A stretch of DNA of 64,000 nucleotides from Verrucomicrobiia bacterium (GTDB lineage Bacteria; Verrucomicrobiota; Verrucomicrobiia; Limisphaerales; UBA8199), in contig DASRFK010000085.1 of assembly GCA_035651635.1 (NCBI GenBank), forward strand, positions 34,728 to 98,727, read 5' to 3'. Below, in pieces: positions 3,677 through 38,466 of the stretch. How positions within the stretch are numbered: position 1 is the first letter of the stretch; each line of letters opens with the position of its first letter. The position numbers and the translations under genes are program-made. The notes under the pieces were generated by a model. It searched no databases. It saw only the letters and a program-made list of their open reading frames with translations, and was not told where the DNA came from.

Positions 3677-3721
3677 CTAGACCAAGGTCCAGTCGAATTT
3701 GCGCGCCTCAGAGATTAATTT
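3677..3721 (+). promoter_or_regulatory. palindrome-promoter module, copy a (upstream of hsp20)
   Basis: CTAGACCAAGGTCCAG (3677..3692), then CGAATT (3694..3699), a 16-nt spacer and TAATTT (3716..3721). Same geometry as copies b-f. The hsp20 ATG is at 3845. Confidence 0.55.
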
Positions 3722-3767
3722 TCTTCAGTAGGCTGCAAAGAATTGCCTCTGGAGCCCAATCTTGTAG

Positions 3768-3816
3768 GCCGCGTGCCCTCACGCGGCATCCGGTTGCAAT
3801 TTGAAAACACGCTCTT
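3768..3816 (+). repeat. hairpin plus conserved tail shared with the dispersed palindromic element (partial copy) inside the predicted hsp20 leader
   Basis: 8-bp stem GCCGCGTG (3768..3775) / CACGCGGC (3780..3787). Tail TTTGAAAACACGCTCTT (3800..3816) matches the right ends of the elements at 5700..5715 and 40580..40595. Confidence 0.5.
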
Positions 3817-3844
3817 GGAAAAAACGCATACAACGAAAGGAATT

Positions 3845-4330
3845 ATGAAACTAATACGCCGAGATAAACAGGATCGAGGAGCGCTCGCTCAAGAACCAAG
3901 CGGTTTCGCCCCGGGCATGGAGTTGAATCGGCTCCGTCGGGAAATCGACCGGCTGTTCGAAGATCCGTTCAGTCTGCTGACACCCAACACGAGCTTCTTC
4001 CAAAACTGGACACCAGCGGTGGATATCTTTGAGGATAAGGACAAATACATCGTGAAGGCCGAACTACCAGGAATGAGGCGGGAGGACATCGACGTTTCTT
4101 TGGATGGCAATACGCTGACGATCTCGGGAGAACGCAAGCAGGAGCAAGAGAAGCGGGAAGAAGAAAGCTATCGCTCCGAACGGTACTTCGGCCGATTCCA
4201 GCGGAGCATCACGCTGCCAACCGAAGTGCAAGCCAACAAAATTGAAGCCTCGTACAAGGACGGTGTCCTGACGGTTACCCTTCCAAAATCCGAAGAGGCA
4301 AAGCCAAAGCAAATTCAAGTGAAGACATAA
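3845..4330 (+). CDS. Hsp20/alpha-crystallin small heat-shock protein
   Basis: Start moved to ATG 3845 (MKLIRRDK..., AAAGGA Shine-Dalgarno at 3836..3841). ACD motifs: WTPAVDIFEDKDKYIVKAELPGMRREDIDVSLDGNTLTISGER...ERYFGRFQRSITLP...A.YKDGVLTVTLPK. Confidence 0.9.
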   Translation: MKLIRRDKQDRGALAQEPSGFAPGMELNRLRREIDRLFEDPFSLLTPNTSFFQNWTPAVDIFEDKDKYIVKAELPGMRREDIDVSLDGNTLTISGERKQEQEKREEESYRSERYFGRFQRSITLPTEVQANKIEASYKDGVLTVTLPKSEEAKPKQIQVKT

Positions 4331-4401
4331 TTGGAGCTAAATTCTTGTACCAAAACCAACTTGGCAGTCATTGTCTGCCTGGTTAATCCAGAAAACTGAA
4401 T

Positions 4402-4815
4402 ATGAATGCTACACCGGAAACACAAACACCTAATGCCACTCAGAACCGAGAAAATCGTGAGAACCGCGCAGGGAACGGACGTCCGCGTGGGTTTGTAACG
4501 CCTCCGGCCAACATTTCGGCCACTGAGAATGAATACCTGGTCGAGGTTGACATGCCTGGCGTGGACAAGGAAGGGCTTGAACTCACCGTGGAGGGGAACG
4601 AGTTGACCATCATCGGACGACGCCATTCCGACCTGCCTGAAAGCGAACCCTGTTATTGCGAATCACCGCAGGCGGACTACCGGCGGGTCTTTGAGCTGGG
4701 CCCGGATGTGGATACTTCCAGGATTAGCGCCGAAATGAAGCAAGGTGTGTTGAAGCTTCGCTTGCCAAAAAGCGAAAAAGCCAAGCCGAAACACATCGAA
4801 GTCAAAGTAGCCTGA
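4402..4815 (+). CDS. Hsp20/alpha-crystallin small heat-shock protein (second, tandem)
   Basis: 137 aa. Motifs: NISATENEYLVEVDMPGVDKEGLELTVEGNELTIIGRR...YRRVFELG...SAEMKQGVLKLRLPK. Confidence 0.85.
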   Translation: MNATPETQTPNATQNRENRENRAGNGRPRGFVTPPANISATENEYLVEVDMPGVDKEGLELTVEGNELTIIGRRHSDLPESEPCYCESPQADYRRVFELGPDVDTSRISAEMKQGVLKLRLPKSEKAKPKHIEVKVA

Positions 4816-4923
4816 TAACTCTCCATTCGCCGGAGGTGTGGCTGCGCACACGGCCGCACCCTGGCAATGGCGACGGCGTTATGGGTTTGTATCTCCAAAG
4901 GCGAGGGTGGGCGATACAGTGGG

Positions 4924-5319
4924 TCAATGTTCGGGAGGAGGACGGCAAAGCCGCTTCACCGTTTTTCGCAGTATTTCAGCATTCACCGGCTTTTGCAGAA
5001 AAAGCACGCCTAACCTCTTAGCTCGCTGGAAGTCTCCCTCGGTGGTCTTACCGCTCAGGAGAACAAGGGGGAGCTTGTGATTGCCGGATAGCAACTGCTC
5101 CGCAACTTGGAACCCGTTTAGATCCGGCAAGTCAACATCGAGGAGGAGGCACTTACTAGAATATCTGGTCTTCGACGTGAGGAATTGTCGGGCCGATTCA
5201 AAGGTCAGGACCTTAAAACCGAAAGACTGAAGGAGTCTGCGAACGGATGTCCTGAAAGAGACGTCATCGTCAACTACGGAAATGACCAACGCCTCAACGC
5301 TTTTGCGTTTCAAAACCAT
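4924..5319 (-). CDS. single-domain CheY-like response regulator (receiver only)
   Basis: 131 aa. Motifs: VISVVDDDVSFRTSVRRLL, acceptor context CLLLDVDLPDLNG, LLSGK, FLQKP. Confidence 0.8.
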   Translation of the reverse strand: MVLKRKSVEALVISVVDDDVSFRTSVRRLLQSFGFKVLTFESARQFLTSKTRYSSKCLLLDVDLPDLNGFQVAEQLLSGNHKLPLVLLSGKTTEGDFQRAKRLGVLFLQKPVNAEILRKTVKRLCRPPPEH

Positions 5320-5615
5320 ACACCAAGAATTGTAATTGGAACGACAGCAGAGGCTATCGGGTTTCTCCGGGAGTCACACCCGGGGAAAGCCGGAATCGCG
5401 AGGTCAGGGATTACCAGGGGAGAGTGTAGGGCCAAACTATCTCGCGTTTGGCGGAGGGCACGGCCACGGCCATCGGTGAATTAAAGATCCGGTTGGGCCT
5501 TGGCGGGCGCCATCACCACGCTAGCGCCAATGTCGTGACGGCATTCCCATCCACGATGCCCGGGGTGCCAGACCCAAGCGCCGGAGATCCAAATCGCGCC
5601 CGGAAAAGAATGCGG

Positions 5616-5716
5616 TTTGGAGTCCCGCCTTTAGGCGGTTTGGCGTCGGGCCGCCTAAAGGCGGGACTCCAAACCCAGGTGCCCACGACCAAGCCGAGGT
5701 TTAAAACACGCTCTTA
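5616..5716. repeat. dispersed palindromic (REP/MITE-like) element, copy 1 (left end missing)
   Basis: Perfect 23-bp inverted repeat TTTGGAGTCCCGCCTTTAGGCGG (5616..5638) / CCGCCTAAAGGCGGGACTCCAAA (5651..5673). It is followed by CCCAGGTGCCCA.GNCCAAGCCGAGGTTTAAAACACGCTCTT, near-identical to 40496..40595. Confidence 0.8.
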
Positions 5717-5734
5717 GTCCTCTCAGAAGCTCAA

Positions 5735-5750
5735 CTGGGCCAAGGGCCAG
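5735..5750 (+). promoter_or_regulatory. palindrome copy g (operator-only, distal site upstream of the M50 protease gene)
   Basis: CTGGGCCAAGGGCCAG. No acceptable -10 box at the phase used by the other copies. A third degenerate site in reverse orientation lies at 5777..5792 (revcomp CAGGGCCAAGGGTCTC). Confidence 0.4.
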
Positions 5751-5798
5751 TCAAAATTCATACGTATCCATTGCGAGAGACCCTTGGCCCTGGTGGGA

Positions 5799-5843
5799 CT
5801 GGCCCAAGGTCCAGGCGAATTCCTGTTCCTCGAATGTTAGTCT
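5799..5843 (+). promoter_or_regulatory. palindrome-promoter module, copy b (upstream of M50-CBS protease)
   Basis: CTGGCCCAAGGTCCAG (5799..5814), CGAATT (5816..5821), 16-nt spacer, TAGTCT (5838..5843). ATG at 5881. Confidence 0.6.
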
Positions 5844-5880
5844 TTGCCCGTAGGGATTTGTTTACCGAGAGCATCTATTT

Positions 5881-6981
5881 ATGAAGTGGTCGGTAAGACT
5901 TGTTCGCATCGGCGGGATTGATATAAAGATTCACGCTACCTTTCTGATTTTTTTGGCGTGGATCGCTTTCACTTATTACCAACAGGGCGGGAGCCAAGTG
6001 GCCGTCCAGGGAACTCTGTTTGTAGCGCTGCTGTTTCTCTGCGTTCTCTTGCATGAATTGGGGCACGCGCTCACTGCCCGGTCATTTGGAATACGCACAC
6101 CGGACATTACCTTGCTGCCAATCGGCGGGGTGGCCAGGCTGGAACGCATTCCCGATCAGCCCAAACAGGAGCTTCTCATCGCGATCGCCGGCCCGCTCGT
6201 CAACGTGGCCATCGCCGCAGTCTTAATTTTTGCGTTGAAAGCGGAGGCTGCCTGGTCCGATTTGGGGGACTTGAACACCCCGCGAGTGGCGCTGCTGGCC
6301 AAACTGGCTTCGGTCAATGTGTTCCTGGTGCTGTTCAATCTTATTCCGGCTTTCCCGATGGATGGGGGGCGAGTGTTGCGGGCTTTGCTGGCGATGCGAA
6401 TGAACTATGCGCGGGCCACGCATGTCGCGGCTACGGTGGGCCAAGGACTGGCATTCGTGTTCGGACTGATCGGTCTGTTGTACAATCCGATGCTCCTGTT
6501 CATCGCGCTCTTCGTATACCTGGGAGCCACGCAGGAAGCTGCGATGGCCCATTTAAAGGACATCAGCAGCGGCATGACGGTCTCCGAGGCAATGCTCGTC
6601 GATCCCAAGACCTTGCCGGCCACGGCGACTCTTGAAGAAGCGGCGGAAGCGGTGTTGCGTACAAGCCAGCATACCTTCGTCGTGCTGGATGAGGACGATC
6701 GCGTGGCAGGGATCCTGACGCGAGGCGAAATCATTTCGGCTTTTCACCAGCGAGGCGGTGCGACTCGCGTCAATCAGGTGATGCACCGTGATGTGCCCGC
6801 CGTCCGAGCGGCGGATCGTTTGGATGACGCCCTCTCGCGCATGCAGGCGGCCGGTTACCCGGCCTTGCCGGTGGTTGATGACTCGGGACGTCTGGCGGGA
6901 TTGATTACCGACGAACGCCTCGAGGAGATCATGATGATGCGATCGCCTCGGCCCGGGGAGGCCAGACCGCGCGCGGCATAA
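5881..6981 (+). CDS. M50-family site-2 metalloprotease with C-terminal CBS pair
   Basis: HELGH zinc motif (LLHELGHALTA), second motif NLIPAFPMDGGRVLRA, multiple TM helices, two CBS-like repeats at the C terminus (...VVLDEDDRVAGILTRGEII... and ...LPVVDDSGRLAGLITDERL...). Confidence 0.9.
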   Translation: MKWSVRLVRIGGIDIKIHATFLIFLAWIAFTYYQQGGSQVAVQGTLFVALLFLCVLLHELGHALTARSFGIRTPDITLLPIGGVARLERIPDQPKQELLIAIAGPLVNVAIAAVLIFALKAEAAWSDLGDLNTPRVALLAKLASVNVFLVLFNLIPAFPMDGGRVLRALLAMRMNYARATHVAATVGQGLAFVFGLIGLLYNPMLLFIALFVYLGATQEAAMAHLKDISSGMTVSEAMLVDPKTLPATATLEEAAEAVLRTSQHTFVVLDEDDRVAGILTRGEIISAFHQRGGATRVNQVMHRDVPAVRAADRLDDALSRMQAAGYPALPVVDDSGRLAGLITDERLEEIMMMRSPRPGEARPRAA

Positions 6982-7030
6982 TTCTGGTCATGAGTTGCAG
7001 ATAAATGCCTTTATGACCGTCTCCTGAGAT

Positions 7031-7759
7031 ATGTTCCCCATCCGGGATTCCATTCCAACGCGATCGGTGCCGGTGGTGACGCGTGCGATAATCCTGATTA
7101 ACGTCCTGGTGTTTTGCCTCGAGTTGGCGCTCCCGCCCGAGACGCTGGACCGGTTCCTTTCTTTGTTCGGCATTGTGCCGGCGCGTTTGATCCATCCCGA
7201 CTGGGCAGCCACAGTGGGTTTCCCCGGTGGTGCTTACTGGACACTCCTGACGCACCAATTTCTGCATGGCGGCTGGCTGCATATCATCAGCAATATGTGG
7301 GCGCTCTGGATCTTCGGTGACAACGTCGAGGATGCCATGGGAGGTCGGCGGTTCGCTTTGTTTTACCTGACCTGCGGCATATTGGCGGCGCTGACCCAAG
7401 TAATGACCCAACCGGACTCCAGGGTGCCTTCCATTGGCGCTTCGGGCGCCATCGCGGGTGTGCTGGGGGCCTATTTCCTGCTCTATCCCACGGCGCGGAT
7501 GGTGGTGCTCCTGCCGATATTTTTCTTTCCATTTTTCTTCGAGGTTCCGGCCGTGTTGTACCTGGGGGTGTGGTTTCTCACTCAATTGTTCAGCGGCACA
7601 TTGGCGTTGGCCTCCCCCGAGGAGGCAGGCGGCATCGCGTTTTGGGCGCACATTGGCGGGTTCTTGTCAGGGATGCTTTTGTGCGCCTTGTTTGTTCAAC
7701 GCGGCCGGCGGCGGCTTCAACCGGACGAATACGGACTCGAGTGGGCCTGGCGTCGGTGA
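7031..7759 (+). CDS. rhomboid-family intramembrane serine protease
   Basis: HGGWLHIISNMWALWIFG, catalytic GASGAIAGVLGAYF, catalytic His context WAHIGGFLSGMLL. About 6 TM segments. Confidence 0.9.
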   Translation: MFPIRDSIPTRSVPVVTRAIILINVLVFCLELALPPETLDRFLSLFGIVPARLIHPDWAATVGFPGGAYWTLLTHQFLHGGWLHIISNMWALWIFGDNVEDAMGGRRFALFYLTCGILAALTQVMTQPDSRVPSIGASGAIAGVLGAYFLLYPTARMVVLLPIFFFPFFFEVPAVLYLGVWFLTQLFSGTLALASPEEAGGIAFWAHIGGFLSGMLLCALFVQRGRRRLQPDEYGLEWAWRR

Positions 7760-7840
7760 ACTGAACCACGGAAAAGTTCTCATGAACCCAACCACCACTG
7801 CCTTCCTGTCTCGAGCCGAGGCTTTGTCCGAACATCAGCG

Positions 7841-7996: not shown

Positions 7997-8018
7997 CACC
8001 CCACCGGGACGCAATATT

Positions 8019-8339: not shown

Positions 8340-8420
8340 GCCAGCATCCATCGCCGTCGCTCATGGGGAATCAATCTAAAATCAAACTGGCGAATTTGCA
8401 GTCAAAGCTGAACTGCCTGA

Positions 8421-9692: not shown

Positions 9693-9737
9693 CTGGACTA
9701 AGGTCCAGCCGAATTCGTGTCCCTCGTGTGCTAGTCT
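9693..9737 (+). promoter_or_regulatory. palindrome-promoter module, copy c (upstream of PRC-barrel operon)
   Basis: CTGGACTAAGGTCCAG (9693..9708), CGAATT (9710..9715), 16-nt spacer, TAGTCT (9732..9737). ATG at 9810. Confidence 0.6.
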
Positions 9738-10376: not shown

Positions 10377-10379
10377 CCA

Positions 10380-13426: not shown

Positions 13427-13549
13427 TTTGAAATTCTCTCCGTTACCTTTGAACTCTCCTTCCACAGCTTCTGTTCTGACCGTAATGCACACTTGGTCGA
13501 AATCAAGTGACGCAAGCAAGAAAAAGCTCCACGACAGGCCCTAATCGCA

Positions 13550-13593
13550 CTGGACCAAAGGCTAGTCGAATTCGCGGCCCAGGAGGGTAAAAT
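13550..13593 (+). promoter_or_regulatory. palindrome-promoter module, copy d (degenerate right half)
   Basis: CTGGACCAAAGGCTAG (13550..13565), CGAATT (13567..13572), 15-nt spacer, TAAAAT (13588..13593). ATG at 13650. Confidence 0.5.
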
Positions 13594-14926: not shown

Positions 14927-17446
14927 TCACCTCTCACTATCAAGACAGCGCCTCAAAATCTCTAACAGTTCCTGCGGAGGGCAAGGCTTTTGGATGAAAT
15001 GCTCCCCCGGTTGCAGCGCAAGTCCGCGTTTTACGATTTCTGCGCTATAACCACTGGTAAATATGACCTTCAGGCGCCCGGGGTTGTCCCCCTGCAATCG
15101 CCGCGCAAGTTGCTGGCCCGTCATTCCCCCCGGCATTACCAAATCCGTCAGCAAGAGGGCAACTTCTCCTTGGTGTTCCTGCCAGATTGCGATGGCCTCC
15201 TCGCCATTGCAGGCTTCTAAAGTGCGGTAACCATGCCGTTCGAGCGTTCTCTTGGTCAGGACGCGCACGGTGGGTTCATCTTCCACCAGGAGGATGGTTT
15301 CAGTACCTCCGATGGATTTGGGGCTTTTAGCGGCGCCTCCGGGTTGAGCCGAGGTCGCCTCGCTGAGGGGGAGGAGGATGTCGAATCTCGCACCGCCAGT
15401 GGGGTTGTTAGCAACCTCGATGAAACCTTGGTGCTGTTTCACAATTCCAAAGACCGTCGCCAAACCCAACCCCGTCCCCTTGCCCGACTCCTTAGTCGTG
15501 AAAAACGGCTCGAAGATATGCGGCAGCACCTGCGGGGGAATCCCTGTCCCGCTGTCACTCACACTCAAGCAGGCGTAGCGTCCAGGCCGAGTGTCAGGAT
15601 GCAGGCGCACGAATTCCTCGTCCAATTCCCTCTCGGACGTCTCGATCAGCAATCGGCCGCCGCCTGGCATGGCATCGCGAGCATTTACCGAGAGATTCAT
15701 CACTACTTGATCGAGCATGCCCGCATCCGCCTGCGTCATAAGAGGCGTCGGATGCAGGTGGAGTTGCAATCGCACGTCCTCGCCGATGATCCGTTGCAGC
15801 ATCTTGGCCAGGCTCGTGACCACTTCATTTGCGTCCAGCAACCGGGGCTGCATCACCTGACGGCGGCTGAACAGAAGCAACTGTCGAGTCAGGTTGGCCG
15901 CTCGCTGGGAGTAGCTCCGGATTTGCTGTAGACCCTCACGCACATCCTCAGGCAGGTCCGTCGAAAGCAATGAAAGCTCAGACTGCATTATCATCGCGGT
16001 CAGAATATTGTTGAAATCATGAGCGACTCCACCAGCCAACTGTCCGATTGCCTCCATTTTCTGCGCCTGTCGGAACTGCTCCTCCAGGCACTTGCGTTCC
16101 GTGACATCCTGAGCCGTGCCGACGTAATGCGTGACTTTGCCTTCGGCGTTTCGCAGAGGAAATCCACGGTCCAGGATCCACCGAAGCGCTCCGTCTGGTC
16201 GAACGATCCGGTACTCATGTTCAAAGCGCTTTCCGTCTCTCCGTGAATCCAGCACGGCCAGCACCCGTTGGCGGTCGTCCTCATGTATAGCTTTGACGAA
16301 GGACCTTGGGTTCCGGCGCAGACTCTCGGTTGAGCATCCCCAAATTCGTTCGTACGCCGGGCTGACGTAAACCATCGTTTCGACCGCTACATCTGACATC
16401 CAGAACGCCTCGTCGATGGTCTCCGTGATAAGTCGAAGGCGCTCTTCACTTGCCCGCAACGCCGCCTCGGATTCCTTTCGCTCCGTAATATCCTCGGCAA
16501 CTCCGGCGACACGATAAAACTCGCCAGCGTCATTTCGAACGGGAAAGGATCGGGCCAGAATCCAGCGAACCGAGCCGTCAGGGCGCGAAATCCGATATTG
16601 CACTTCGGTTTCACGGCCTTGCTTCTTGGCCGCGATTGCCGCCATTAACTGATCGCGATCTTCAGGATGCGCCGCCTCGGCGAACGAAGCCGGTCGTTCG
16701 TAAAGTGTCGAACAAGGCCGACCCCATATCTGCTCGTAAGCCGGGCTGACATAAAGAACCTGCGTCATGTCCTTGTTGCACATCCAGAACACCTTATCAA
16801 TGCGGTCCGCCATCTGCCGGAAACGTTCCTCGCTTTCCCCGAGTCGCTCCTCCGCCCGCTCGCGCTCGGTGATGTCCTCGCCGATGCTTGCGGTGCCAAT
16901 GACCTCGCTGGACACCGAGCGCAGCACCGAGTTGTTCCACCGAATCAAACGCCGTCCGCCTGCCTTTGTGAGTATCTCGTTTTCATGGTGCCACGCGTCG
17001 GGCAGGTCTTTCAGGAGGTTTTCAAACACGTCTTTAAGATCGGCGATGTCGCTGGGAATAAACAAATCAAGCCAGCTCTGTCCAATAACCTCCTCGCGAG
17101 ACCAGCCAGTGAGCGTTAATAAGTAATCGTTGCAGTAAGTGATGTGCCCTCGGACATCCAGCATCAAAGATATCAGCTTGATCCGGCTCATCATGTCGCG
17201 AAAGAGTCTCTCGCTCTCACGCAGTGCAGCCTCTGCCCGCTGCCGCTCCGCAATCTCCGTCCGCAATGCCTCGCTCACACTTCCCCGTCCCTCGCTCTCC
17301 GACTCCGGTCGCGAGGCCCCGCGAACGCAACTCTGTCCATCACAGCAAAGGGTGGTATCTCCGGTCGGGCTCCCCGGCGAACCCGCAAATTTGCTGGCGT
17401 CCTGGTCGAGGCGTATAATGTCGCTATCTTTCATGGCGTGTATCAA
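14927..17446 (-). CDS. hybrid sensor histidine kinase (multi-PAS, HisKA, HATPase, C-terminal receiver)
   Basis: 839 aa with 4 PAS/PAC-like repeats. H-box GGVAHDFNNILT. HATPase motifs NLSVNARDAM, DSGTGI, GTGLGLATV. Receiver ILLVEDEPTVR...LLLTDLVMPGGMTG...SGY. Confidence 0.9.
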   Translation of the reverse strand: MIHAMKDSDIIRLDQDASKFAGSPGSPTGDTTLCCDGQSCVRGASRPESESEGRGSVSEALRTEIAERQRAEAALRESERLFRDMMSRIKLISLMLDVRGHITYCNDYLLTLTGWSREEVIGQSWLDLFIPSDIADLKDVFENLLKDLPDAWHHENEILTKAGGRRLIRWNNSVLRSVSSEVIGTASIGEDITERERAEERLGESEERFRQMADRIDKVFWMCNKDMTQVLYVSPAYEQIWGRPCSTLYERPASFAEAAHPEDRDQLMAAIAAKKQGRETEVQYRISRPDGSVRWILARSFPVRNDAGEFYRVAGVAEDITERKESEAALRASEERLRLITETIDEAFWMSDVAVETMVYVSPAYERIWGCSTESLRRNPRSFVKAIHEDDRQRVLAVLDSRRDGKRFEHEYRIVRPDGALRWILDRGFPLRNAEGKVTHYVGTAQDVTERKCLEEQFRQAQKMEAIGQLAGGVAHDFNNILTAMIMQSELSLLSTDLPEDVREGLQQIRSYSQRAANLTRQLLLFSRRQVMQPRLLDANEVVTSLAKMLQRIIGEDVRLQLHLHPTPLMTQADAGMLDQVVMNLSVNARDAMPGGGRLLIETSERELDEEFVRLHPDTRPGRYACLSVSDSGTGIPPQVLPHIFEPFFTTKESGKGTGLGLATVFGIVKQHQGFIEVANNPTGGARFDILLPLSEATSAQPGGAAKSPKSIGGTETILLVEDEPTVRVLTKRTLERHGYRTLEACNGEEAIAIWQEHQGEVALLLTDLVMPGGMTGQQLARRLQGDNPGRLKVIFTSGYSAEIVKRGLALQPGEHFIQKPCPPQELLEILRRCLDSER

Positions 17447-17633
17447 AGTCCAGAGCGCGTCCGCCCCAATCGGCCATTCGCAACGGCCATTTGCTTGTCA
17501 GTAGCAATAAACCAGCCCTTGGGGTCTTCGCTCACCAGAAGTTGCCATTTATTGCGCAAGAATTGACCAGCTATTTGGCAATGGCTCGTGGTGCCGGTGG
17601 GCCGACACATCCACACTCTGCCGGCTCTCCTTA

Positions 17634-17679
17634 CACGACCAAGGTCCAGTAGCGTCTTGGCGCTCGCGGAGGGTAGAAT
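17634..17679 (+). promoter_or_regulatory. palindrome-promoter module, copy e (upstream of HPF-like gene)
   Basis: CACGACCAAGGTCCAG (17634..17649), -35 position AGCGTC, 17-nt spacer, TAGAAT (17674..17679). ATG at 17802. Confidence 0.5.
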
Positions 17680-20207: not shown

Positions 20208-20414
20208 TGCAGTTTTAGTTAGGTAGAGAGTGCGCGCTGTGAGCGCCATCTCTGCCTTCCTGAATGGTGGTGACGAAGGTTTGACAATTTGGCGGTGGAC
20301 TGACAGCGACGCCCCATCTACCGCCGGTCCAGCCGGGGAACGAGAAACAGTTTAGCGTCACAATACCTTAACCGACAAAGCTCTCCCGAAACGACTTGTT
20401 CGCCCCAGCGAAGT

Positions 20415-20430
20415 TGGAACGCGATGTGCA
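20415..20430 (+). promoter_or_regulatory. candidate sigma54 (-24/-12) promoter
   Basis: TGGAACGCGATGTGCA against consensus TGGCACG-N4-TTGCW. GG and GC are at the canonical 12-nt register. It lies ~40 nt upstream of ATG 20470. Confidence 0.4.
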
Positions 20431-20469
20431 ACCAGTAATCTCGAAATGGTATAAACACAGGAATAATCA

Positions 20470-25157: not shown

Positions 25158-25484
25158 TTACTGACGAAGCCAGCGCGCCTCGGCCTGCAGACGCTCCACC
25201 TCGTTCATCAGGCTCAGGATCATTCTCACGCCCTGCAGGTTAATGTCGCAGGTATGGTGGAGGTACTCGATGCGGCGCAGCGTTCGGATACCCTCTTCGT
25301 TAAAATAAAAACCGTGGTTGGCCGGATCGACGACCGGGGACACCAAACGGTATTTGCAAAACACGGCAATCCGGCGACGCGGAACGTGAGCCAGACGCTC
25401 TGCCGCTTCAATCGTGTAAACCGCATCCGGGTCCGGTTCGAAAACCTGGATCGCTCCGTCAGGATTCTCTTGTGTTCGAGTCAT
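25158..25484 (-). CDS. MerR-superfamily HTH protein, CbpM/HspR-like chaperone modulator
   Basis: 108 aa. YTIEAAERLAHVPRRRIAVFCKYRLVSP......FYFNEEGIRTLRRIEYL.....INLQGVRMILSL. It lies in a cbpA-containing operon. Confidence 0.6.
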   Translation of the reverse strand: MTRTQENPDGAIQVFEPDPDAVYTIEAAERLAHVPRRRIAVFCKYRLVSPVVDPANHGFYFNEEGIRTLRRIEYLHHTCDINLQGVRMILSLMNEVERLQAEARWLRQ

Positions 25485-27046: not shown

Positions 27047-27557
27047 GGCTCAGATCGTTGACAACGACTTTAGCCGGGCGAAAAACCTCCCGACCACGAC
27101 GATAGCCGCGCTCGAAAACTTCCAGCACGCTATGGTCGGGTCGAGACGGATCGTGCGCGGCCCGCAACGCTTCGTGGCGATGCGGGTCAAAAGGCTGACC
27201 AAGGTCCTCCACAGGCTCGATGCCGTGACGGCGCAGCAGTTGCCGCAATTGCTGGAGGGTCATTTGAACGCCCTGACGAAGGTGCTCAGGCAGGCCGGCG
27301 GTGGCGAGGGCTCGCTCCAGGTTATCGATGACGGGCAGCAGGTCGCGAATGAATCCTTCCTTTTGGGCGGCCGCCCGTCGGTCAACCTCCTGGGCAGTGC
27401 GTTTACGGAAATTATCGAAATCTGCTGCCAGGCGCAGGTGACGGTCTTGGAGTTCAGCCAGTTCCTTTGCCTCCGCAGGCAGATCCTCCTGTGCTGTCGC
27501 GCGGCCGTTGGCAGAGCCGTCGCCATCGGCGGGTGTATCGTCTCGTGGTGCATTCAT
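27036..27557 (-). CDS. grpE: nucleotide exchange factor GrpE
   Basis: 173 aa. [62 protein letters not shown]. The start overlaps the upstream stop (ATGA). Confidence 0.9.
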
Positions 27558-28612
27558 ACCCGGGCACCCATTGCGGTTGAATCTTCAAGCAAAGCGTGAC
27601 GGACGCGCTGTCGCAGCGCGGAGATTGTTTCCTTGACCCGGGCGAGCGGTTGGCCGGTGGCGTGAGCGATTTCCTCCGGCTCAAGCCCCTCGACGTAGTA
27701 TAGCTCAAAGACTTCGCGTTCCGCGCGTGGCCAGTGCTTGATATCCTGTTGGAGTTGTTCGAGCGCCTCCTTTTCCGCCAGGATTTCATCCGGCGGCAGG
27801 GCTTCGGAATTGGGCACAATGTCCTCAGTGCGGATGACTTGCGGCTCCATTTTCTTTTCCACAAACTCCTCAAGGGGTTGCAGGTTTTGTTCGCCGAGTT
27901 CCGGCAACTTCACAGGTTTTTCAGTGGGAACTTCGGTCACCTCCTTCTCCTTGACGAGCTCACGGCGGCGTTTGAGTTCTTCATGAATAAGGTGATAAAA
28001 CCAAACCAGCCAGCCCATATCGTTCGGGCGTGTGGCATAGGTGGCGATCGCGCGCCGTGCCACCTCATCCACAATGGCGCGCGCGTCCAGCGCACCTGCG
28101 GGAATATCGCCGGCCAGTTCGTCATGGCGGATGTGGCGGCGCGCGTGCCGTAACAACTCCCGGTAATGATACTGTAACAGCTCACGGATGACGTCCTCGC
28201 GGTTTTGGGGCCCGGTGCCCGCGGGCTGAGGCTGCTGCGCAAAACCTGCGCTTTTGAGCTGGCGCCGCAACTCTTCCCGGCGGGCCTTGCGCTTCCAAAG
28301 GCGCTCGCCCCGCGCCGTGGATTTAAACTTCTCAAGTTCCCGCAGCAGGCTCTTAACGGCTTCGTCGAAAGCCGTGATGAGCCCTTCTCCAGACTGAGCG
28401 GTGTGCAAAATGGCCGAAGGCACTCGCAAGGTCAGCTTGACATTGTGCGGGGGCGTTCCCGACCCGCGCTCGAGCACAATCTGGAGGTGAACGGCGTCGG
28501 GGGGAAAATGCTTGAGATGCCTCTCGAGTTTGGAAATTTTCTGGCGGAGCTTTTTCTCGAGCGATTCGTCTTTTTCAACGTTCTTGGTAACCAGATTCCA
28601 GCTAAAAGTCAT
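27554..28612 (-). CDS. fusion protein: N-terminal HPF/RaiA-like (S30AE) domain + C-terminal sigma70-family (ECF-like, clear region 4) domain
   Basis: Start moved to ATG 28612 (AGGAG Shine-Dalgarno). N-terminal MTFSWNLVTKNVEKDESLEKKLRQKISKLERHLKHFPPDAVHLQIVLER....HNVKLTLRVPSAILHTAQSGEGLITAFDEAVKSLLRELEKFKS follows the HPF pattern. C-terminal WPRAEREVFELYYVEGLEPEEIAHATGQPLARVKETISALRQRVRHAL follows the sigma70 region 4.2 pattern. A weaker region-2-like stretch is AIVDEVARRAI....P.DMGWLVWFYHLIHEELKRR. Confidence 0.7.
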   Translation of the reverse strand: MTFSWNLVTKNVEKDESLEKKLRQKISKLERHLKHFPPDAVHLQIVLERGSGTPPHNVKLTLRVPSAILHTAQSGEGLITAFDEAVKSLLRELEKFKSTARGERLWKRKARREELRRQLKSAGFAQQPQPAGTGPQNREDVIRELLQYHYRELLRHARRHIRHDELAGDIPAGALDARAIVDEVARRAIATYATRPNDMGWLVWFYHLIHEELKRRRELVKEKEVTEVPTEKPVKLPELGEQNLQPLEEFVEKKMEPQVIRTEDIVPNSEALPPDEILAEKEALEQLQQDIKHWPRAEREVFELYYVEGLEPEEIAHATGQPLARVKETISALRQRVRHALLEDSTAMGARV

Positions 28613-28680
28613 GAGCGTCTCCTGTTTAAGATAGTTATGTGTTCGCAAAACCAATGGCTGTCACGGTGATGAAGCGAAGC

Positions 28681-32957: not shown

Positions 32958-32969
32958 AGGCGTATTATT

Positions 32970-33007: not shown

Positions 33008-33036
33008 CCGATTGTAGTTTCCCTCAAGTGCGAAGG

Positions 33037-34956
33037 TCAGCGGCGGCTGCTGTCTTCCACGACCTCGGCATCCACTACGTCATCCTCCTGGCGCTCCGGG
33101 CGGGCCTGGCCGCTATCCCTTGTGCCGGGCGGCGGCTTTTGTTGAGAGGCGGCTTTGTACAACGCGGCCGAGACGGATTGCCAGACTTCATTGAGCCGGG
33201 CACTGGCGGATTTCATCGCCGCGGCATCCTCACGTTTGATCGCCTCCTTGGCCTCGGTGATGGCCTCCTCGATTTTGCGGCGGTCGGCTTCCGAGATCTT
33301 GCCCGCGTTGTCGCGCAGCATTTTCTCTGACCGATACACGGCGCTGTCGGCTTCGTTGCGCGCCTCGATTTCCTCGCGTTTCTGTTTGTCCTCCTCCGCG
33401 TGTATTTCCGCGTCTCGCTGCATTTTATCGATATCCTGTTTCGAGAGCCCGCTGCTGGCGGTGATCGTAATCTTCTGTTCTTTGCCCGTACCCAGGTCCT
33501 TAGCGCTTACATGCAGGATGCCGTTGGCATCGATATCGAAAGCCACTTCGATTTGAGGCACGCCCCGAGGGGCGGGCGGGATGTCGGTCAATTGGAATCG
33601 GCCGATGGTTTTGTTGTCTTTGGCCAACGGGCGTTCGCCCTGTAACACATGGACCTCAACACCGGGTTGGTTGTCCGAAGCCGTGCTGAACACCTCCGAC
33701 TTTCGGGTTGGAATAGTAGTGTTGCGGTCAATCAGTTTCGTCGTAACACCCCCCAAGGTCTCGATACCAAGCGAAAGCGGAGTGACATCGAGCAGGACAA
33801 CGTCCTTCACATCGCCCTTAAGGACACCGGCCTGAATGGCCGCGCCGACGGCGACTACCTCATCCGGGTTTACCCCCTGGTGCGGCGGTTTGTTGATCAG
33901 CGAGCGGGCGATCTCCACGATTCGCGGCATCCGGGTCATGCCCCCGACCATCACCAGTTCGTCAATGTCGTCGGTCGTTACACCGGCATCCTTTAAACAA
34001 GCCTTCACCGGTGGGATTGTCCGCTCGGAAAGGTCTTCACATAATTGTTCCATCTTCGCCCGTGTCAACTTGAGCTGGATATGTTTCGGGCCGCTGGCGT
34101 CCGCCGTGATGAAGGGGAGATTGATTTCATATTCTGTCACATTCGAGAGTGCGATCTTGGCTTTTTCGGCTTCTTCCTTGATGCGCTGTAACGCGTCCGG
34201 TTGCTTGCGCAAATCCATGCCGTTGGATTTCTTGAACTCGTCCAAAATCCAATCCATGATCCGCGCATCCCAGTCGTCCCCGCCAAGATGGGTATCGCCA
34301 TTGGTCGCCTTGACTTCAAAAACCCCTTCGCCGATGTCGAGCACTGAAATGTCGAACGTGCCGCCGCCGAGGTCGAACACGGCTACCTGTTCATTTTTCT
34401 TCTTGTCCAACCCGTAAGCCAGGGAAGCGGCCGTGGGCTCGTTGACGATGCGTAATACCTCCAGGCCGGCGATGCGGCCGGCGTCTTTGGTGGCCTGGCG
34501 CTGCGAATCGTTAAAGTACGCAGGAACCGTAATGACAGCCTGGGTGATTTTGTCTCCCAGCCGCACTTCGGCATCGGCTTTCAGTTTCGAGAGAATCATC
34601 GCGGAAATCTCCGGCGGGCTGAACTGTTTCGGTCGGCCGCCGACTTCGACCTCTACTGCCGCGTCGCCGTTTTGGGCGCGGACGACTTTGTAGGGAACGC
34701 GCTTGATTTCTTCCTGCACCTCATCGTATTTGCGGCCCATGAAGCGTTTAATGGAATAGATGGTATTCCGTGAGTTTGTGATGGCCTGCCGTTTGGCCGC
34801 ATCGCCGACAATTCGCTCGCCGGATTTGGTGAACGCAACCACGGAAGGGGTGGTCCGTTTGCCTTCCGAGTTTTCCAGCACAGAGGGTTCGCCGCCTTCC
34901 ATGACGGCCATGCATGAATTAGTGGTGCCGAGATCGATACCGATGACTTTTGGCAT
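33037..34956 (-). CDS. dnaK: Hsp70 chaperone DnaK
   Basis: [37 protein letters not shown]-terminal lid and acidic tail. Confidence 0.97.
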
Positions 34957-34995
34957 AAAATACGTGTGTTAATGGTTGAGGTTGTTTCAGGAGGT

Positions 34996-35556
34996 TCACC
35001 GAACTGAAGGTGACTGCGTAAGCGCCGCGAGGAGCGGATCGAGACCGCGCGCGCCATCGTATCGCTCGCCATTGATGAAAAAGCTCGGCGTGCCGTTGAC
35101 ACCTCCCCGAATCCCACTCTTAAAATCTTCGCGAATGCGCGCCGCATGGGCGCCGGCCCGGACTTCGCCGACCAGGCGCCGAGCATCGAGGCTCAGAGCT
35201 GTGGCATAACGGGCGAGATCCTCGATGTCGAGGGCATCCTGGTTTTCGAAGAGCGCGTCGTGCATTTCCCAAAAACTACCTTGGGCGCCGGCGGCCTCGG
35301 CCGCCTCGGCGGCATCCTCGGCGTGCGGGTGCATGTTCACCAGAGGGAAATTGCGAAATGCGAAACACAGGTTATCGCCCAGACGCTGCTGGATCGCCTT
35401 AACGACGGGATAAACCTCCCCGCAAAAGGGGCACTCGTAGTCGCCGTACTCGACCAGCGCAATGGACGCCTCAATCGGTCCCTGGATATGGTCGCGTCCG
35501 GCGACCGGCAGGGTGAGTTTCGATACTGGAATCGTTCTGGGAGAGGACGTGCTCAT
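34996..35556 (-). CDS. DsbA-family thiol:disulfide oxidoreductase (thioredoxin fold), no signal peptide
   Basis: LVEYGDYECPFCGEVYP (CPFC active site). Typical C-terminal GTPSFFINGERY. The start overlaps the peroxiredoxin stop (ATGA). Confidence 0.8.
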   Translation of the reverse strand: MSTSSPRTIPVSKLTLPVAGRDHIQGPIEASIALVEYGDYECPFCGEVYPVVKAIQQRLGDNLCFAFRNFPLVNMHPHAEDAAEAAEAAGAQGSFWEMHDALFENQDALDIEDLARYATALSLDARRLVGEVRAGAHAARIREDFKSGIRGGVNGTPSFFINGERYDGARGLDPLLAALTQSPSVR

Positions 35557-36080
35557 TTGGCCACCTCTTTGGGCTGCAGAGTTTCCAACGCCGAAAGAAT
35601 TCCCGCTGCCCCGGGATTTACCCCGACAGGCGAAACATAGCTCCAGTGCACTTTTCCGTCCGGATCGAGGACGAACAACGCCCGTTCGCTCACACCATCG
35701 CCGTTGCGATACACCCCGTAGCTTTGCGCCACCGCGCCTTTAGGCTCAAAATCCGCCAGCAGAGGGAAGTGCAGTTTTCGATCCCTGCTGAACGCCGCGT
35801 GACACCATGCGCCGTCTACTGAAAGACCGAGCAATTCCGCCCCGAACTGTTGAAACTCGGGCAGGATCTCGTTATACAGCGTCATCTGGTCACCACAAAC
35901 GGGACTCCAATCGGCCGGATAGAAGGCGAGGATCACAGGGCATCCGCGAAAGTCCCTAAGGCTGACGAATTGGTCGGGGGTGCTTCGCAGTGTGAAATCC
36001 GGAGCGTCTGTTCCCGGCGGCAAGGCCGCGTTCTTGGACCCTTTCGGGTACATCTGTTTGTACTTGGTTTCTTGGTTCAT
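35553..36080 (-). CDS. peroxiredoxin (AhpC/TSA family)
   Basis: APDFTLRS...VSLRDFRGCPVILAFYPADWSPVCGDQM. Confidence 0.85.
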   Translation of the reverse strand: MNQETKYKQMYPKGSKNAALPPGTDAPDFTLRSTPDQFVSLRDFRGCPVILAFYPADWSPVCGDQMTLYNEILPEFQQFGAELLGLSVDGAWCHAAFSRDRKLHFPLLADFEPKGAVAQSYGVYRNGDGVSERALFVLDPDGKVHWSYVSPVGVNPGAAGILSALETLQPKEVAK

Positions 36081-36117
36081 AATTTTTGTCTCCTGTTTTG
36101 TTAAAGTAGATGTTCCG

Positions 36118-36981
36118 TTAAAGTAGAGTTGCCGCCCGGGGCTCGCTTCGGCCGGTCCGGCGTGGAACCGGGAGGTACTCCACGGAAGGCTGTCGCCGCG
36201 TCGGTTGCGGGTAGAGCTGCATCAAATTCAACATGTCTTCTGGAATGTCGCTGCGCACTCGCAACCCCAGCTCGTGAGCTCGATCGTAGGTTATCGGATA
36301 ATCGTGAGTCCAAGTGCCGCTGGTCAACAGTTTGGCTAATTCTGCGCCTTTTTCGCTGGGATACCGGTCGGCCAATAACAGGCGCACTTCGCCATCCATT
36401 TGGGCCACGGCCTTTTCCGCCTGGTCGGCCAGAATCAAGGTCTTATCGTCCACCTCGGCGATCGGCTTCTCGCGGACGGCTCGGAGAATCGAAGCGGCGG
36501 GATGTTCGCCCAGTTGCGGATCGACGGGGCCTAGCACCGCATGTTCGGACATGACGACTTCGCTGGCGGCCAGGGCTATCAACGTGCCACCGGACATCGC
36601 GTAGTGCGGCACGAAAACCGTAACCTTGCCTTTGTGTTTGACCACCGCTCGCGCGATTTGGGTTGCAGCCAGGACCAACCCGCCCGGCGTATGCAGCACA
36701 AGATCCAGCGGAATCTCAGGATCGGTCAAATGGATGGCGCGGAGAACTTCCTCGCTGTCGTCCACATCAATGTACCGAAACAAAGGGAAGCCCAGCACAC
36801 TCATTGTTTCCTGACGATGAACCAGAAGCACGACACGCGATTTCCGTTCTCTCTCAATTTGGGCGATGAGTCTTCGTCGCGAGGCCTCGAGCATTCGTTG
36901 TTTCATGACCGGCTGAAGCGCCGAGAGCATGAAAAACACCCAAAAGATCTGCATTGGATCGATCACGGCCGAGTTAGTCAT
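36118..36981 (-). CDS. membrane-anchored SDH-family (ClpP-fold) serine protease
   Basis: N-terminal TM segment. LDLVLHTPGGLVLAATQIARAV, HYAMSGGTLIALAASEVVM, typical of the 'serine dehydrogenase proteinase' / periplasmic ClpP-class family. Confidence 0.7.
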   Translation of the reverse strand: MTNSAVIDPMQIFWVFFMLSALQPVMKQRMLEASRRRLIAQIERERKSRVVLLVHRQETMSVLGFPLFRYIDVDDSEEVLRAIHLTDPEIPLDLVLHTPGGLVLAATQIARAVVKHKGKVTVFVPHYAMSGGTLIALAASEVVMSEHAVLGPVDPQLGEHPAASILRAVREKPIAEVDDKTLILADQAEKAVAQMDGEVRLLLADRYPSEKGAELAKLLTSGTWTHDYPITYDRAHELGLRVRSDIPEDMLNLMQLYPQPTRRQPSVEYLPVPRRTGRSEPRAATLL

Positions 36982-37229
36982 ATCTCACCCAAGCAACGCT
37001 GTGCATCTCCCTTGCCAGAGGCTCATGTATCGGGGAGGAATTCGTCCATGTAGCTAAGTTCAAAGCGGTTAATCCAGTGAATGATTGGCGCGGTGATGCT
37101 TGAGGCCCAGGCTCGTCAAGAAATGACGTCAGCATTTTGACAAAGAGTCAGTAATCCGTCAGCCGATCGCACCGTTCTGATGAGCGATAGCTGCCTTTGT
37201 CGCAAAAGAGTCATCCGAAGTGATGCGGC

Positions 37230-37466
37230 CTACGGTTTGGCCTGGAAGAAATCCGGGTCCGTGGCTTTGGTATTGGCAGCATCGTGAAAATTGCCCAGCC
37301 ATGCCTGTCCAGTTGTGGTGTCAACGATCACAAAGAAACTGGCGGAACCACTGACCTGATACTTCCCTACCGGAGCGGGCGAGTTGGTCCCTGCTATGAC
37401 CAAGGTGGCCAGCAAACCGCCGCACAAACCCAGCAGTCCACTCCTGAAATCAAATTTAAGTCTCAT
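37230..37466 (-). CDS. small membrane-anchored or secreted protein, unknown function
   Basis: 78 aa. Hydrophobic N terminus GLLGLCGGLLATLVIAG. No family recognised. Confidence 0.4.
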   Translation of the reverse strand: MRLKFDFRSGLLGLCGGLLATLVIAGTNSPAPVGKYQVSGSASFFVIVDTTTGQAWLGNFHDAANTKATDPDFFQAKP

Positions 37467-37738
37467 GAAAGTTGCAGGGGCATTTCCTATTCCAAATACA
37501 GTTGGGTTCAGGATTGCTTTTGCATGCGTTTCTCCATTCGAAGTTTAGGGAGGTAAGAGCCAACAGAGGCCAGCGGCGATATACGAATCACCGGTGCATT
37601 CCGGGTCGGCCTTTCGACAAAAAGTCCGTGCTCCGTCGCGAAAACGGAACCATTGGCCGCGACCTGTACAGCGGCGATTGACTTTGATTTTCGTTAATGG
37701 GTGTTAAGTTGGTCACAGCACCCTCCAAGGCCTGAGCC

Positions 37739-38392
37739 ATGCTCGAATCTGATCCTGAATCGGATCCAATTGTGATCATCATTGACGACGATGTATCGTT
37801 CCTTCGATCCACCGAGCGGTTGGTGCGTGCGGCGGGCTTTAAGACTCGAATGTTTGAAAGCGCAAAGGACTTTCTGGATGCCAAGCGTCCGGATGCCCCG
37901 GTTTGCGTGCTGCTCGACGTGCGCTTGCCCGGGATGAGCGGCCTCGATTTGCAGAAGCACCTGTCCCGCACTGGCGAGGAAGTCCCGATCATCTTCATCA
38001 CTGGGAAGGGTGACATTCCAATGTCGGTTCAGGCGATGAAGGGTGGCGCGGTCGAGTTTCTCACCAAACCGTTCCGGGAACCGGACCTCCTCGAGGCCAT
38101 CCAGCAAGCCCTTAGCCGTGACCGCGCAGCACGTGAAAACCGCGCGCGAGTCGGAGAGTTACGCCGAAACTATGAAACCCTCACTCCGCGAGAGCGCGAA
38201 GTTCTGGCGCTTCTGGTTGCCGGTTTCCTGAATAAACAAATCGCCGGACGACTGGGAACGGTCGAAAAAACAATCAAATTCCATCGCGCGCATGTTATGC
38301 GGAAGATGGAGGCTGGGTCTTTGGCTGAATTGGTCCACATGGCCGGATTCCTGGAGAGATCGGCACGGCGTCCGACCCCGCCGGTTCCATAA
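37739..38392 (+). CDS. orphan FixJ/NarL-type response regulator (REC + LuxR/GerE HTH)
   Basis: [106 protein letters not shown]. Paralog of the regulator at 1..623. No kinase gene is adjacent. Confidence 0.9.
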
Positions 38393-38421
38393 GACGCGGC
38401 AAAGGCGCGTAGCGGCGTCTG

Positions 38422-38466
38422 CTGGCCCAAGGTCCAGTAGATTCGTCATCCCATTCGAGCTATTTC
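38422..38466 (+). promoter_or_regulatory. palindrome-promoter module, copy f (upstream of sigma54 activator)
   Basis: CTGGCCCAAGGTCCAG (38422..38437), -35 position AGATTC, 16-nt spacer, TATTTC (38461..38466). The 16-mer is identical to copy b. Confidence 0.5.

Follow-up and report, generated by a model that had tools for sequence, protein, structure and literature searches.

The window analysed here, a 64-kb stretch of the genome of a Verrucomicrobiia bacterium (contig DASRFK010000085.1), contains a 40-kb block of stress genes in which a 16-bp palindrome, CTGGNCCAAGGTCCAG, occurs in seven copies. The palindrome is best explained as the operator of a FixJ-type subfamily of response regulators, two paralogues of which, designated here RR1 and RR2, are encoded in the same block; through it, these regulators would activate stress promoters of the sigma70 type. 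As judged from the sequence, this reading has a probability of about three in four. The first-pass annotation of this DNA had proposed the operator of a dimeric helix-turn-helix (HTH) regulator abutting the -35 region, with the local FixJ/NarL-type regulators as candidates, and this proposal is supported by the fit of the palindrome to the binding consensus of the EL222 protein, by its presence at 12 of 12 loci of the regulator subfamily, by its covariation with the recognition helix and by its phase relative to the -10 box. The additional candidate named there, a fusion of HPF with a sigma factor, gained no evidence as a binder. The regulon defined by this probable operator is undescribed but mechanistically conventional, i.e., a response-regulator dimer bound to a palindrome which abuts the -35 element; a literature search yielded no account of the operator sequence or of such a regulon in Verrucomicrobiota.

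The palindrome and its distribution

The sequences and coordinates of the seven copies (sites a to g) were confirmed as first described. A search allowing up to three mismatches returned 11 matches, which comprise the seven sites and four of them rescored on the reverse strand, whereas dinucleotide-shuffled sequences gave a mean of 0.46 +/- 0.70 matches and none of 100 shuffles reached 11. A position weight matrix (PWM) built from the seven sites and scanned over the whole window sets them clearly apart from the background, with scores of 21.1-25.3 bits against 13.3 bits for the best unrelated match. The AA centre is on the plus strand in all seven sites, each of which lies upstream of a plus-strand gene, and all seven are intergenic, although intergenic DNA accounts for 10.3% of bases 1-40411 (p ~1e-6, counting six independent regions); the intergenic placement and the orientation toward the next gene thus hold without exception. 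In the same PWM scan, all the sites are confined to the stress-gene block, and the other 23.6 kb, which consist of ordinary genes of the Planctomycetes-Verrucomicrobia-Chlamydiae (PVC) type, contain no copy.

The flanks of the palindrome are equally regular. A hexamer begins at the second base past it (CGAATT in a-d, AGCGTC in e and AGATTC in f), and a -10-like box follows 15-17 nt after this hexamer, i.e., 22-24 nt past the palindrome, in six of the seven sites (a-f). The first-pass description of these -35 and -10 flanks stands, except that the box of site f, TATTTC, does not conform to TAnnnT. The sites and their modules are as follows, where each hexamer given is that at the -35 position and L-numbers, here and below, denote loci fetched for comparison.

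3677..3692, plus strand: site a, CTAGACCAAGGTCCAG, upstream of hsp20-hsp20 and divergent from the kaiB-HK1-RR1 operon
3693..3721, plus strand: promoter module of site a, with TCGAAT at the -35 position (3693-3698) and -10-like TAATTT (3716-3721)
5735..5750, plus strand: site g, CTGGGCCAAGGGCCAG, a distal copy 64 bp upstream of site b, without a promoter module of its own
5799..5843, plus strand: site b, CTGGCCCAAGGTCCAG, with GCGAAT and -10-like TAGTCT (5838-5843), upstream of the M50-CBS protease and rhomboid genes
9693..9737, plus strand: site c, CTGGACTAAGGTCCAG, with CCGAAT and TAGTCT (9732-9737), upstream of genes for a PRC-barrel protein, DUF4404 and a secreted helical protein
13550..13593, plus strand: site d, CTGGACCAAAGGCTAG, with TCGAAT and TAAAAT (13588-13593), upstream of the lipoprotein gene 13650 and open reading frame (ORF) 14272
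17634..17679, plus strand: site e, CACGACCAAGGTCCAG, with TAGCGT and TAGAAT (17674-17679), upstream of genes for an HPF-like protein, a Zn-ADH-type reductase and an aldo/keto reductase
38422..38466, plus strand: site f, CTGGCCCAAGGTCCAG, with TAGATT and TATTTC (38461-38466), 30 nt past the RR2 stop codon and upstream of the sigma54 activator and DUF308 genes
L094 13265-13280, outside the window: eighth site of the source genome, CTGCCCTAAGGTCCAG-TAGATT, about 206 nt past the RR1 stop codon, preceding a gene for a 160-aa REC-only protein

The intergenic regions that contain sites d and e (13519-13565 and 17446-17649, respectively) separate divergent genes; an aldo/keto reductase-PPK2 unit starts 31 nt away from site d, and a PAS hybrid kinase gene lies 188 nt away from site e. 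As near-symmetric operators, both could also affect these minus-strand neighbours.

Since the palindrome is repeated and intergenic, and many of its copies lie just past the 3' end of a regulator gene, it might be a repetitive extragenic palindromic (REP) element, the remnant of a mobile element, or an RNA hairpin or terminator. In a simple scan, the minus strand of site a comes out as terminator-like, and site f with its flanks folds at -17.1 kcal/mol (z -3.6). Five of the seven sites, however, fold at only -3.7 to -11.4 kcal/mol, six have z values between +0.1 and -1.9, and no consistent T tract follows the sites, in keeping with the doubt cast at the outset on a hairpin or terminator role. 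A REP-like origin is equally at odds with the retention of orthologous positions down to ~70% protein identity, with the fixed phase of the copies to the -10 box and their constant orientation toward the downstream gene, and with their absence from the ordinary genes which make up the other 23.6 kb of the window. An origin of this kind is hardly credible.

Promoter geometry

When the non-redundant sites of the window and its relatives are considered together, TAnnnT begins 22-24 nt past the palindrome in 14 of 24, and at other offsets it occurs 0-2 times. If the -10 box is taken to span -12 to -7, the dyad is computed to lie at about -43.5 (-42.5 to -44.5). Transcription from these promoters in the window is predicted to begin near 3728, 5850, 9744, 13600, 17686 and 38473. 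The -35 position is occupied by the non-canonical element T(C/A)GA(A/T)T, which takes the form TCGAAT before structural genes and TAGAT before regulatory genes. A generic promoter scan called no canonical -35/-10 promoter in the site-bearing intergenic regions.

Such an arrangement has precedents among characterized activators. At hspX, a DosR box with its centre at -43.5 is combined with a suboptimal -35 element, and DosR reads GGGACT via K179, K182 and N183 (PMC13486717); the primary DosR box at tgs1 is centred at -42.5. In the case of StyR, a high-affinity inverted repeat at about -40 is essential for activation, while a distal site of lower affinity is bound cooperatively. In E. coli, sigma70 polymerase is activated when an EL222 site overlies the -35 region. 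The constant phase between site and -10 box, these parallels and the lack of a canonical promoter together lead us to interpret the palindrome as the operator of a promoter that depends on an activator. The position of the dyad and the abutted -35 element would place the promoter-proximal subunit of a bound dimer where it could recruit sigma70-type polymerase, as in LuxR, DosR and engineered EL222 promoters.

The same features could in part be accommodated if the 16-mer were itself a promoter element, recognized by an alternative sigma factor such as the HPF::ECF fusion. The promoter-proximal half and T(C/A)GA(A/T)T are the best-conserved segments, their orientation is fixed, and an unusual ECF sigma fusion is indeed encoded in the block. 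A sigma element would not, however, be expected to possess twofold symmetry; the palindrome ends 22-24 nt before the -10 box and its centre lies 31 nt upstream, too far for a -35 element, and the -10 box is of the housekeeping-like TAnnnT type rather than ECF-like. In addition, distal copies without a promoter exist (site g and L041 3505), and the genomic association and covariation described below are with the response-regulator gene. Recognition by a sigma factor is therefore very improbable. The palindrome itself was also considered as a sigma54 promoter, and this was rejected since its GG and GC are not 10 nt apart.

The regulators and their recognition helix

The genes for the two candidate regulators each lie within a small cluster of regulatory genes in the block.

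1..623, minus strand: RR1, FixJ-type response regulator (REC and GerE HTH domains), candidate binder; its last codons lie just outside the window
626-3049, minus strand: HK1, four-PAS histidine kinase with the H-box SLAHEINQPL, presumed cognate sensor of RR1
3060-3389, minus strand: kaiB, co-transcribed with HK1 and RR1
37739..38392, plus strand: RR2, FixJ-type response regulator, 64% identical to RR1, candidate binder
38633-39793, plus strand: sensor-less enhancer-binding protein for sigma54, regulatory output of site f
39815-40411, plus strand: DUF308/HdeD-like protein, downstream of the sigma54 activator

Both RR1 and RR2 match the Pfam families Response_reg and GerE. Their closest solved relative is StyR (1YIO, E 8e-57 and 8e-55), followed at some distance by FixJ (5XSO, 1e-40 and 2e-39), NarL (1e-17 to 1e-19) and DosR (1e-11 to 1e-12). 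Orthology of the regulators with DosR is not borne out: they are FixJ/StyR-like and not orthologues of DosR. The best NCBIfam model for RR2 is that of FixJ (NF006900), which it matches with 197 bits, below the curated cut-off of 255; by its sequence, RR2 is a member of a FixJ-like paralogue family and not FixJ itself.

RR1 and RR2 share nearly the same recognition helix. An alignment restricted to the HTH brings up EL222, whose helix SEKTVKMHRGLVMEKL aligns with that of the two regulators and has EKT(I/V)K(F/M)HR in common with it. A homologue search with RR2 reveals a very large family in which the helix is conserved as E(K/R)T(I/V)KFHR.

The regulator gene often follows that of a kinase, as in HK1-RR1 in the window and with PAS/GAF kinases in L090, L093, L096, L098, L099 and L111, whereas RR2 is an orphan with no kinase in its operon. 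The H-box of HK1 is one which we take to be of the FixL type. Light sensing of the LOV type by HK1 was considered and rejected, as the protein has no NCRFLQ-type motif.

Fit to the EL222 consensus

The experimentally derived 12-bp consensus of EL222 is RGNCYWWRGNCY (PMC10521638, citing Rivera-Cancel 2012); the high-affinity C120 (optimal) site contains TAGCCTTTAGTCCA, and a natural site contains CTAGACCAAAG (PMC10521638). The core of the palindrome, GGNCC-AA-GGNCC, is an exact instance of this consensus and fits in all seven window sites. The DosR core GGACT-WW-AGTCC is likewise an instance of it. The resemblance to the DosR box noted in the first-pass annotation is real for both core and geometry, i.e., GGGACT half-sites, a centre at -43.5 and a suboptimal -35 element.

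When the 30 sites collected from the window and its relatives are compared with the consensus, 29 fit at the informative positions and 25 at every position, while five sites from relatives each deviate at one position. Four positions are invariant in all 30 (position 6 C, 8 A, 11 G and 13 C), and the promoter-proximal half-site is the better conserved of the two.

Association of the palindrome with the regulator subfamily

The comparative set consists of the neighbourhoods of eleven RR2 homologues and that of RR1. A site lies 0 to ~206 nt past the stop codon of the regulator gene in 12 of 12 loci of the subfamily, namely those of RR2 in the window, RR1, L090, L093, L096, L098, L099, L111, L100, L101, L105 and L108. 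The gene which follows this site usually codes for a REC-only protein and/or a sigma54 activator, as at site f. The order of regulator, site with a TAGAT-like flank, and REC-only gene and/or sigma54 activator is found in L090, L093, L096, L098 and L111, and after RR1; in L099 the site is kept, but with a TAGTC flank and a different downstream gene. The module of regulator, site, REC and sigma54 activator, intact in relatives, is split in the source genome, with the REC gene next to RR1 and the activator next to RR2. An additional site precedes the kinase-regulator operon in L090, L093, L096 and L111, which suggests autoregulation. Other copies precede hsp20 operons (one of them with groES-groEL-usp), BON-domain and DUF2267-like genes and M50CBS-dnaK, and further copies precede genes for an NDH2-like flavoprotein, a Zn-ADH/DJ-1 operon and transporters.

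The control loci behave differently. In 378 kb fetched via the unrelated M50-CBS protein, sites appear only in three close relatives, apart from one 15-bit match. NarL-type regulators in the same loci (L093 15404, L098 13946 and L094 20333) have no adjoining site, and no site occurs in 21 kb around a FixJ-like gene whose helix is of another type.

Conservation at the individual promoters extends over a limited phylogenetic range. Four of the sites (a to d) have been retained in L034, and the promoter block of site a is intact in L013/L034. Site b is kept in L041 at 71% protein identity, where the operon is M50CBS-dnaK, and site d is kept in L034 before a 52%-identical orthologue even though the neighbouring gene differs. 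Most metagenomic M50-CBS orthologues (<=73% identity) have other gene contexts and no motif, and the conservation of the site at the M50-CBS promoter is limited to a narrow clade.

A pattern scan of 185,579 species genomes, a collection which does not include the source species, with GNCYAAGGTCCAGNCGAATT produced 33 matches, approximately the number that we would expect by chance (an estimated and not a computed figure). The only true relative among them is L013, a Verrucomicrobiia metagenome-assembled genome (SMAG_U9893), which is the nearest named relative; a more distant homologous locus is found in Chthoniobacter sp. Matches in Polyangiales and Syntrophaceticus represent non-palindromic conserved sequence, probably coding, and were set aside as unrelated. 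Ten of the 33 matches (L003, L004, L011, L012, L014, L018, L022, L023, L025 and L026) share the non-palindromic GGCGTCCAAGGTCCAGTCGAATTTTCG; the carriers are nine Polyangiales/Myxococcales genomes and L022, labelled Proteobacteria, and the shared stretch is presumably a conserved gene or element with no relation to the palindrome.

Covariation of helix and operator

The lysine of the EKT motif is replaced by arginine in part of the subfamily, and the operator changes with it. In the eight loci with EKT-type regulators, the promoter-proximal arm is GGTCCAG or AGTCCAG, whereas in the four with ERT-type regulators it is GGTACAG, and the opposite arm is altered symmetrically to CTGT, in at least eight sites. 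The Lys/Arg residue aligns with K179 of DosR, one of the three base-reading residues of that protein, and the pattern is that expected from direct read-out, which predicts covariation between helix and box. The ERT sister group (L100, L101, L105 and L108, with the helix ERTIKFHR) carries CTGTNCC-WW-GGNACAG boxes, often tandem or overlapping, and these boxes are associated with genes for RND efflux systems and sigma54 activators, not with those for chaperones.

This covariation bears on whether the operator, if real, is bound by a different LuxR/GerE-type protein or by an unrelated dimeric regulator, or whether RR1 and RR2 act on it as repressors. Other regulators are indeed encoded nearby, including the MerR/HspR-like protein, NarL-type regulators in L094 and the HPF::ECF sigma fusion, and the start sites at the palindrome promoters are predicted ones. 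Yet the motif accompanies one regulator subfamily in 12 of 12 loci and changes with its helix, the NarL-type genes in the same loci lack an adjoining site, and the core fits the consensus of EL222, which has the most similar characterized HTH. As regards repression, the site precedes a weak -35 element and a good -10 box with no canonical promoter present, which is the geometry of an activator. Taken together, a different binder or an opposite sign is unlikely.

Proposed mode of action

Under the preferred reading, in which the palindrome is the operator of the RR1/RR2 subfamily, a FixL-type PAS kinase (HK1 in the case of RR1) would respond to a presumed signal by phosphorylating the regulator, which would then dimerize. 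Each recognition helix (EKTIKFHR) would read one RGNCY half of GGNCC-AA-GGNCC, and the dimer would sit ~43.5 bp upstream of the predicted start, abutting the non-canonical T(C/A)GA(A/T)T at -35. The predicted direct targets are hsp20-hsp20, the M50-CBS protease with rhomboid, the PRC/DUF4404/secreted protein operon, the lipoprotein pair, the HPF-like protein with two reductases, the REC-only protein and the sigma54 activator.

Comparison with known systems

EL222 of Erythrobacter litoralis possesses a nearly identical LuxR/GerE helix and the same core consensus, and it binds as a dimer and activates from a position overlapping -35. It is a one-component LOV light sensor, in contrast to the receiver domains and PAS kinases found here, and its consensus comprises 12 bp, whereas the box described here is longer (16 bp), with conservation of the outer CT/AG and of the flank on the downstream side. 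Little is known of the regulon which EL222 controls in nature.

DosR/DevR of Mycobacterium tuberculosis shares the GGAC(T/C) half around a WW centre and has overlapping targets in the alpha-crystallin, HPF-like and CBS classes. Its base-reading lysines and T180 are conserved as EKTIK in RR1 and RR2, while N183 is replaced by Phe and the outer bases are CTGG as opposed to SGGG. DosR promoters need at least two tandem, helically phased boxes, whereas a second site is present at just one of the six promoters in the window, that of M50-CBS, and this site (g) is not conserved. The DosR kinases DosS and DosT are GAF-haem proteins, whereas those found here are of the PAS, FixL-type, with GAF added in some relatives. 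The parallel drawn in the first-pass annotation with the DosR regulon holds in part: the alpha-crystallin, HPF-like and CBS classes overlap, and the USP gene is preceded by a sigma54-type module rather than by the palindrome. The term "dormancy" is accordingly a label by analogy only.

Among full-length solved structures, that of StyR of Pseudomonas is nearest to RR1 and RR2; TodT of Pseudomonas belongs to the same comparison. The dimerization of StyR is driven by phosphorylation. Its cooperative distal site offers a model for the pair formed by sites g and b, which might act likewise. StyR differs in its helix, AEVTVKVHRHNIMQKL, and in the outer bases of the half-site, and it controls one catabolic operon rather than a dispersed stress regulon. 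Its STY box, ATAAACCATGGTTTAT, reportedly has the same 7-2-7 layout and an inner ACC-WW-GGT.

The FixL-FixJ system has the same domain architecture, and its cascade via a second regulator (FixK) parallels the sigma54 activator described here; FixJ differs in its helix, SPRTVEVHRANVMAKM, and in controlling respiration and nitrogen-fixation genes, where stress and proteostasis genes are the targets here. LuxR-type activators (lux box at about -42.5) likewise place a dimer on a palindrome at the -35 region of a sigma70 promoter without a good -35 element, yet they are ligand-activated and bind a 20-bp box of unrelated sequence. By sequence, RR1 and RR2 are thus classed as members of the FixJ subfamily and not as FixJ, StyR or DosR, with an operator predicted to work like those of the lux-box, Dev-box and STY2 types.

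A putative second tier with sigma54 promoters

The 13-gene minus-strand run at 22-37 kb (36981 down to 22195) contains no palindrome. Its order is SDH protease, peroxiredoxin, DsbA-like, DnaK, ClpB, G6PD, HPF::ECF-sigma, GrpE, DnaJ, thioredoxin, MerR/HspR-like, Hsp20 and Lon. This operon is preceded by a different module, in which the element YYGACnnTTTGnCRA-N5-YGACG is followed at 132-135 bp by GG-N10-GC. Seven instances of the module were found (three in the window, two in L093 and two in L096), and in all three window instances the spacing is exactly 134 bp.

20281..20430, plus strand: module before yflT-usp, with upstream element TTGACAATTTGGCGGTGGACTGACA (20281-20305) and -24/-12 element TGGAACGCGATGTGCA (20415-20430)
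37628..37479, minus strand: module before the 78-aa lipoprotein ORF (37466-37230), with upstream element at 37628-37604 and TGGAATAGGAAATGCC (37494-37479)
37151..37002, minus strand: module before the 13-gene SDH protease-to-lon operon, with upstream element CTGACTCTTTGTCAAAATGCTGACG (37151-37127) and TGGCAAGGGAGATGCA (37017-37002)
L093, about 6018 and 3956, minus strand: two modules, one of them near-identical (-24/-12) to that of the 13-gene operon and located before hsp20-prx-dsbA-dnaK
L096, about 5362 and 4590, minus strand: two pairs of the element and GG-N10-GC

The modules occur only in the three organisms whose loci carry a sigma54 activator beside an EKT-type regulator. A plain scan of the window for TGGCAC-N5-TTGCW gave 40 matches against 36 expected, which is no enrichment; the sigma54 modules are visible only through the upstream element and its fixed spacing. 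Transcription from the three window modules is predicted to begin near 20441, 37468 and 36991. The 78-aa minus-strand ORF (37466-37230) is unannotated and carries a lipoprotein signal, MRLKFDFRSGLLGLCGG; the 90-aa plus-strand ORF at 37284-37556 is probably spurious.

The activator encoded downstream of site f probably forms a second tier of regulation through the upstream element and the -24/-12 promoters. Its N-terminus consists of just 70 low-complexity residues, and this sensor-less protein of 386 aa would switch on yflT-usp, the small lipoprotein gene and the 13-gene dnaK-clpB-grpE-dnaJ-lon operon. If the regulator controls the activator and the activator in turn the sigma54 promoters, almost all the stress genes of the island would be covered by the cascade. 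A bolder proposal, to which we give rather less than even odds, is that a two-tier cascade of this kind is widespread in soil Verrucomicrobiota, whereby a FixL/FixJ-like system of EL222-like DNA specificity would turn on sigma70 stress promoters directly, together with a sensor-less sigma54 activator of dnaK, clpB, grpE, dnaJ, lon, hsp20 and usp. Sigma54 would then be the effective heat-shock and general-stress sigma factor, and the Lys/Arg switch would re-programme the operators between sister regulons. A literature search found no sigma54 heat-shock system described in Verrucomicrobia.

Points that weigh against the proposed regulon

Several observations weigh against the reading of the palindrome as an activator site of RR1 and RR2. 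The restriction of the palindrome to upstream regions applies to ~75 kb of the source genome and ~0.3 Mb of relatives, and site g is not conserved in L013/L034. As binders, RR1 and RR2 are indistinguishable, and the true binder could be a third paralogue that is encoded at another place in the genome. The ERT group may be a single clade, and the Lys/Arg covariation may therefore represent a single evolutionary event. The conservation of the element at -35 exceeds what a simply weak -35 would require, and the element could be read by another factor. Activation, as the sign of regulation, is deduced from geometry alone, and the start sites are likewise deduced. Finally, the sigma54 activator and the upstream element are connected only by their co-occurrence in three organisms.

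Gene content of the stress block

The source contig, 131 kb in length, is ENA ERZ27279688 k141_1073971. Pfam assigns the genes downstream of the palindromes to hsp20 (two genes), M50 and CBS, rhomboid, PRC, DUF4404, an S30AE HPF-like protein, a Zn-ADH-type reductase and an aldo/keto reductase, with the sigma54 activator and DUF308 downstream of site f. The product of 13650 has a lipobox. The gene identities first put forward are thereby upheld, that of the lipoprotein 13650 by its lipobox. The first hsp20 gene (hsp20a) probably starts at ATG 3845 rather than at TTG 3743, and its long leader matched neither an RNA thermometer nor a riboswitch in an Rfam search, which returned only a tRNA.

Within the 13-gene operon, the HPF::ECF fusion (27554-28654, minus strand) is encoded between G6PD and grpE and joins an HPF/YfiA hibernation domain (residues 21-113) to a complete ECF-type sigma factor (residues 156-355), the latter scoring above the TIGR02937 cut-off. 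The MerR/HspR-like regulator (25158-25484, minus strand) follows grpE-dnaJ-thioredoxin, as does hspR in the actinobacterial dnaK operon; no HAIR-like repeat was recognized for it. The kaiB gene heads the HK1-RR1 operon, and the window contains no kaiC. About 200 bp covering kaiB are missing from the nearest relative, L013/L034 (~86-90% identity), which points to a recent gain or loss of the gene.

A tRNA gene (40816-40889, plus strand) lies 400 nt past the last gene of the stress block. Beyond it are PVC housekeeping and large-protein genes, including those for a 1271-aa Ser/Thr kinase with WD40 repeats (41718-45533, minus strand), a Planctomycete-type ECF sigma factor and an FGE-sulfatase. 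The 40-kb stress block may be a discrete island.

Significance

The value of these findings lies in annotation and comparative regulation, and no new principle is involved. The residue-to-base pair of Lys or Arg versus C or A in GGT[C/A]CAG provides a clean case for the evolution of specificity in LuxR-type HTH domains. If the wider cascade were true, sigma54 under two-component control would serve as a stress sigma factor in this lineage. The regulon would also give a natural setting to a DNA specificity known from the optogenetic tool EL222. The Verrucomicrobiota are abundant in soil and rarely cultured, and their gene regulation is almost uncharted; for one of their members, a putative operator can now be put forward together with two candidate regulators, a kinase and a set of predicted direct targets.

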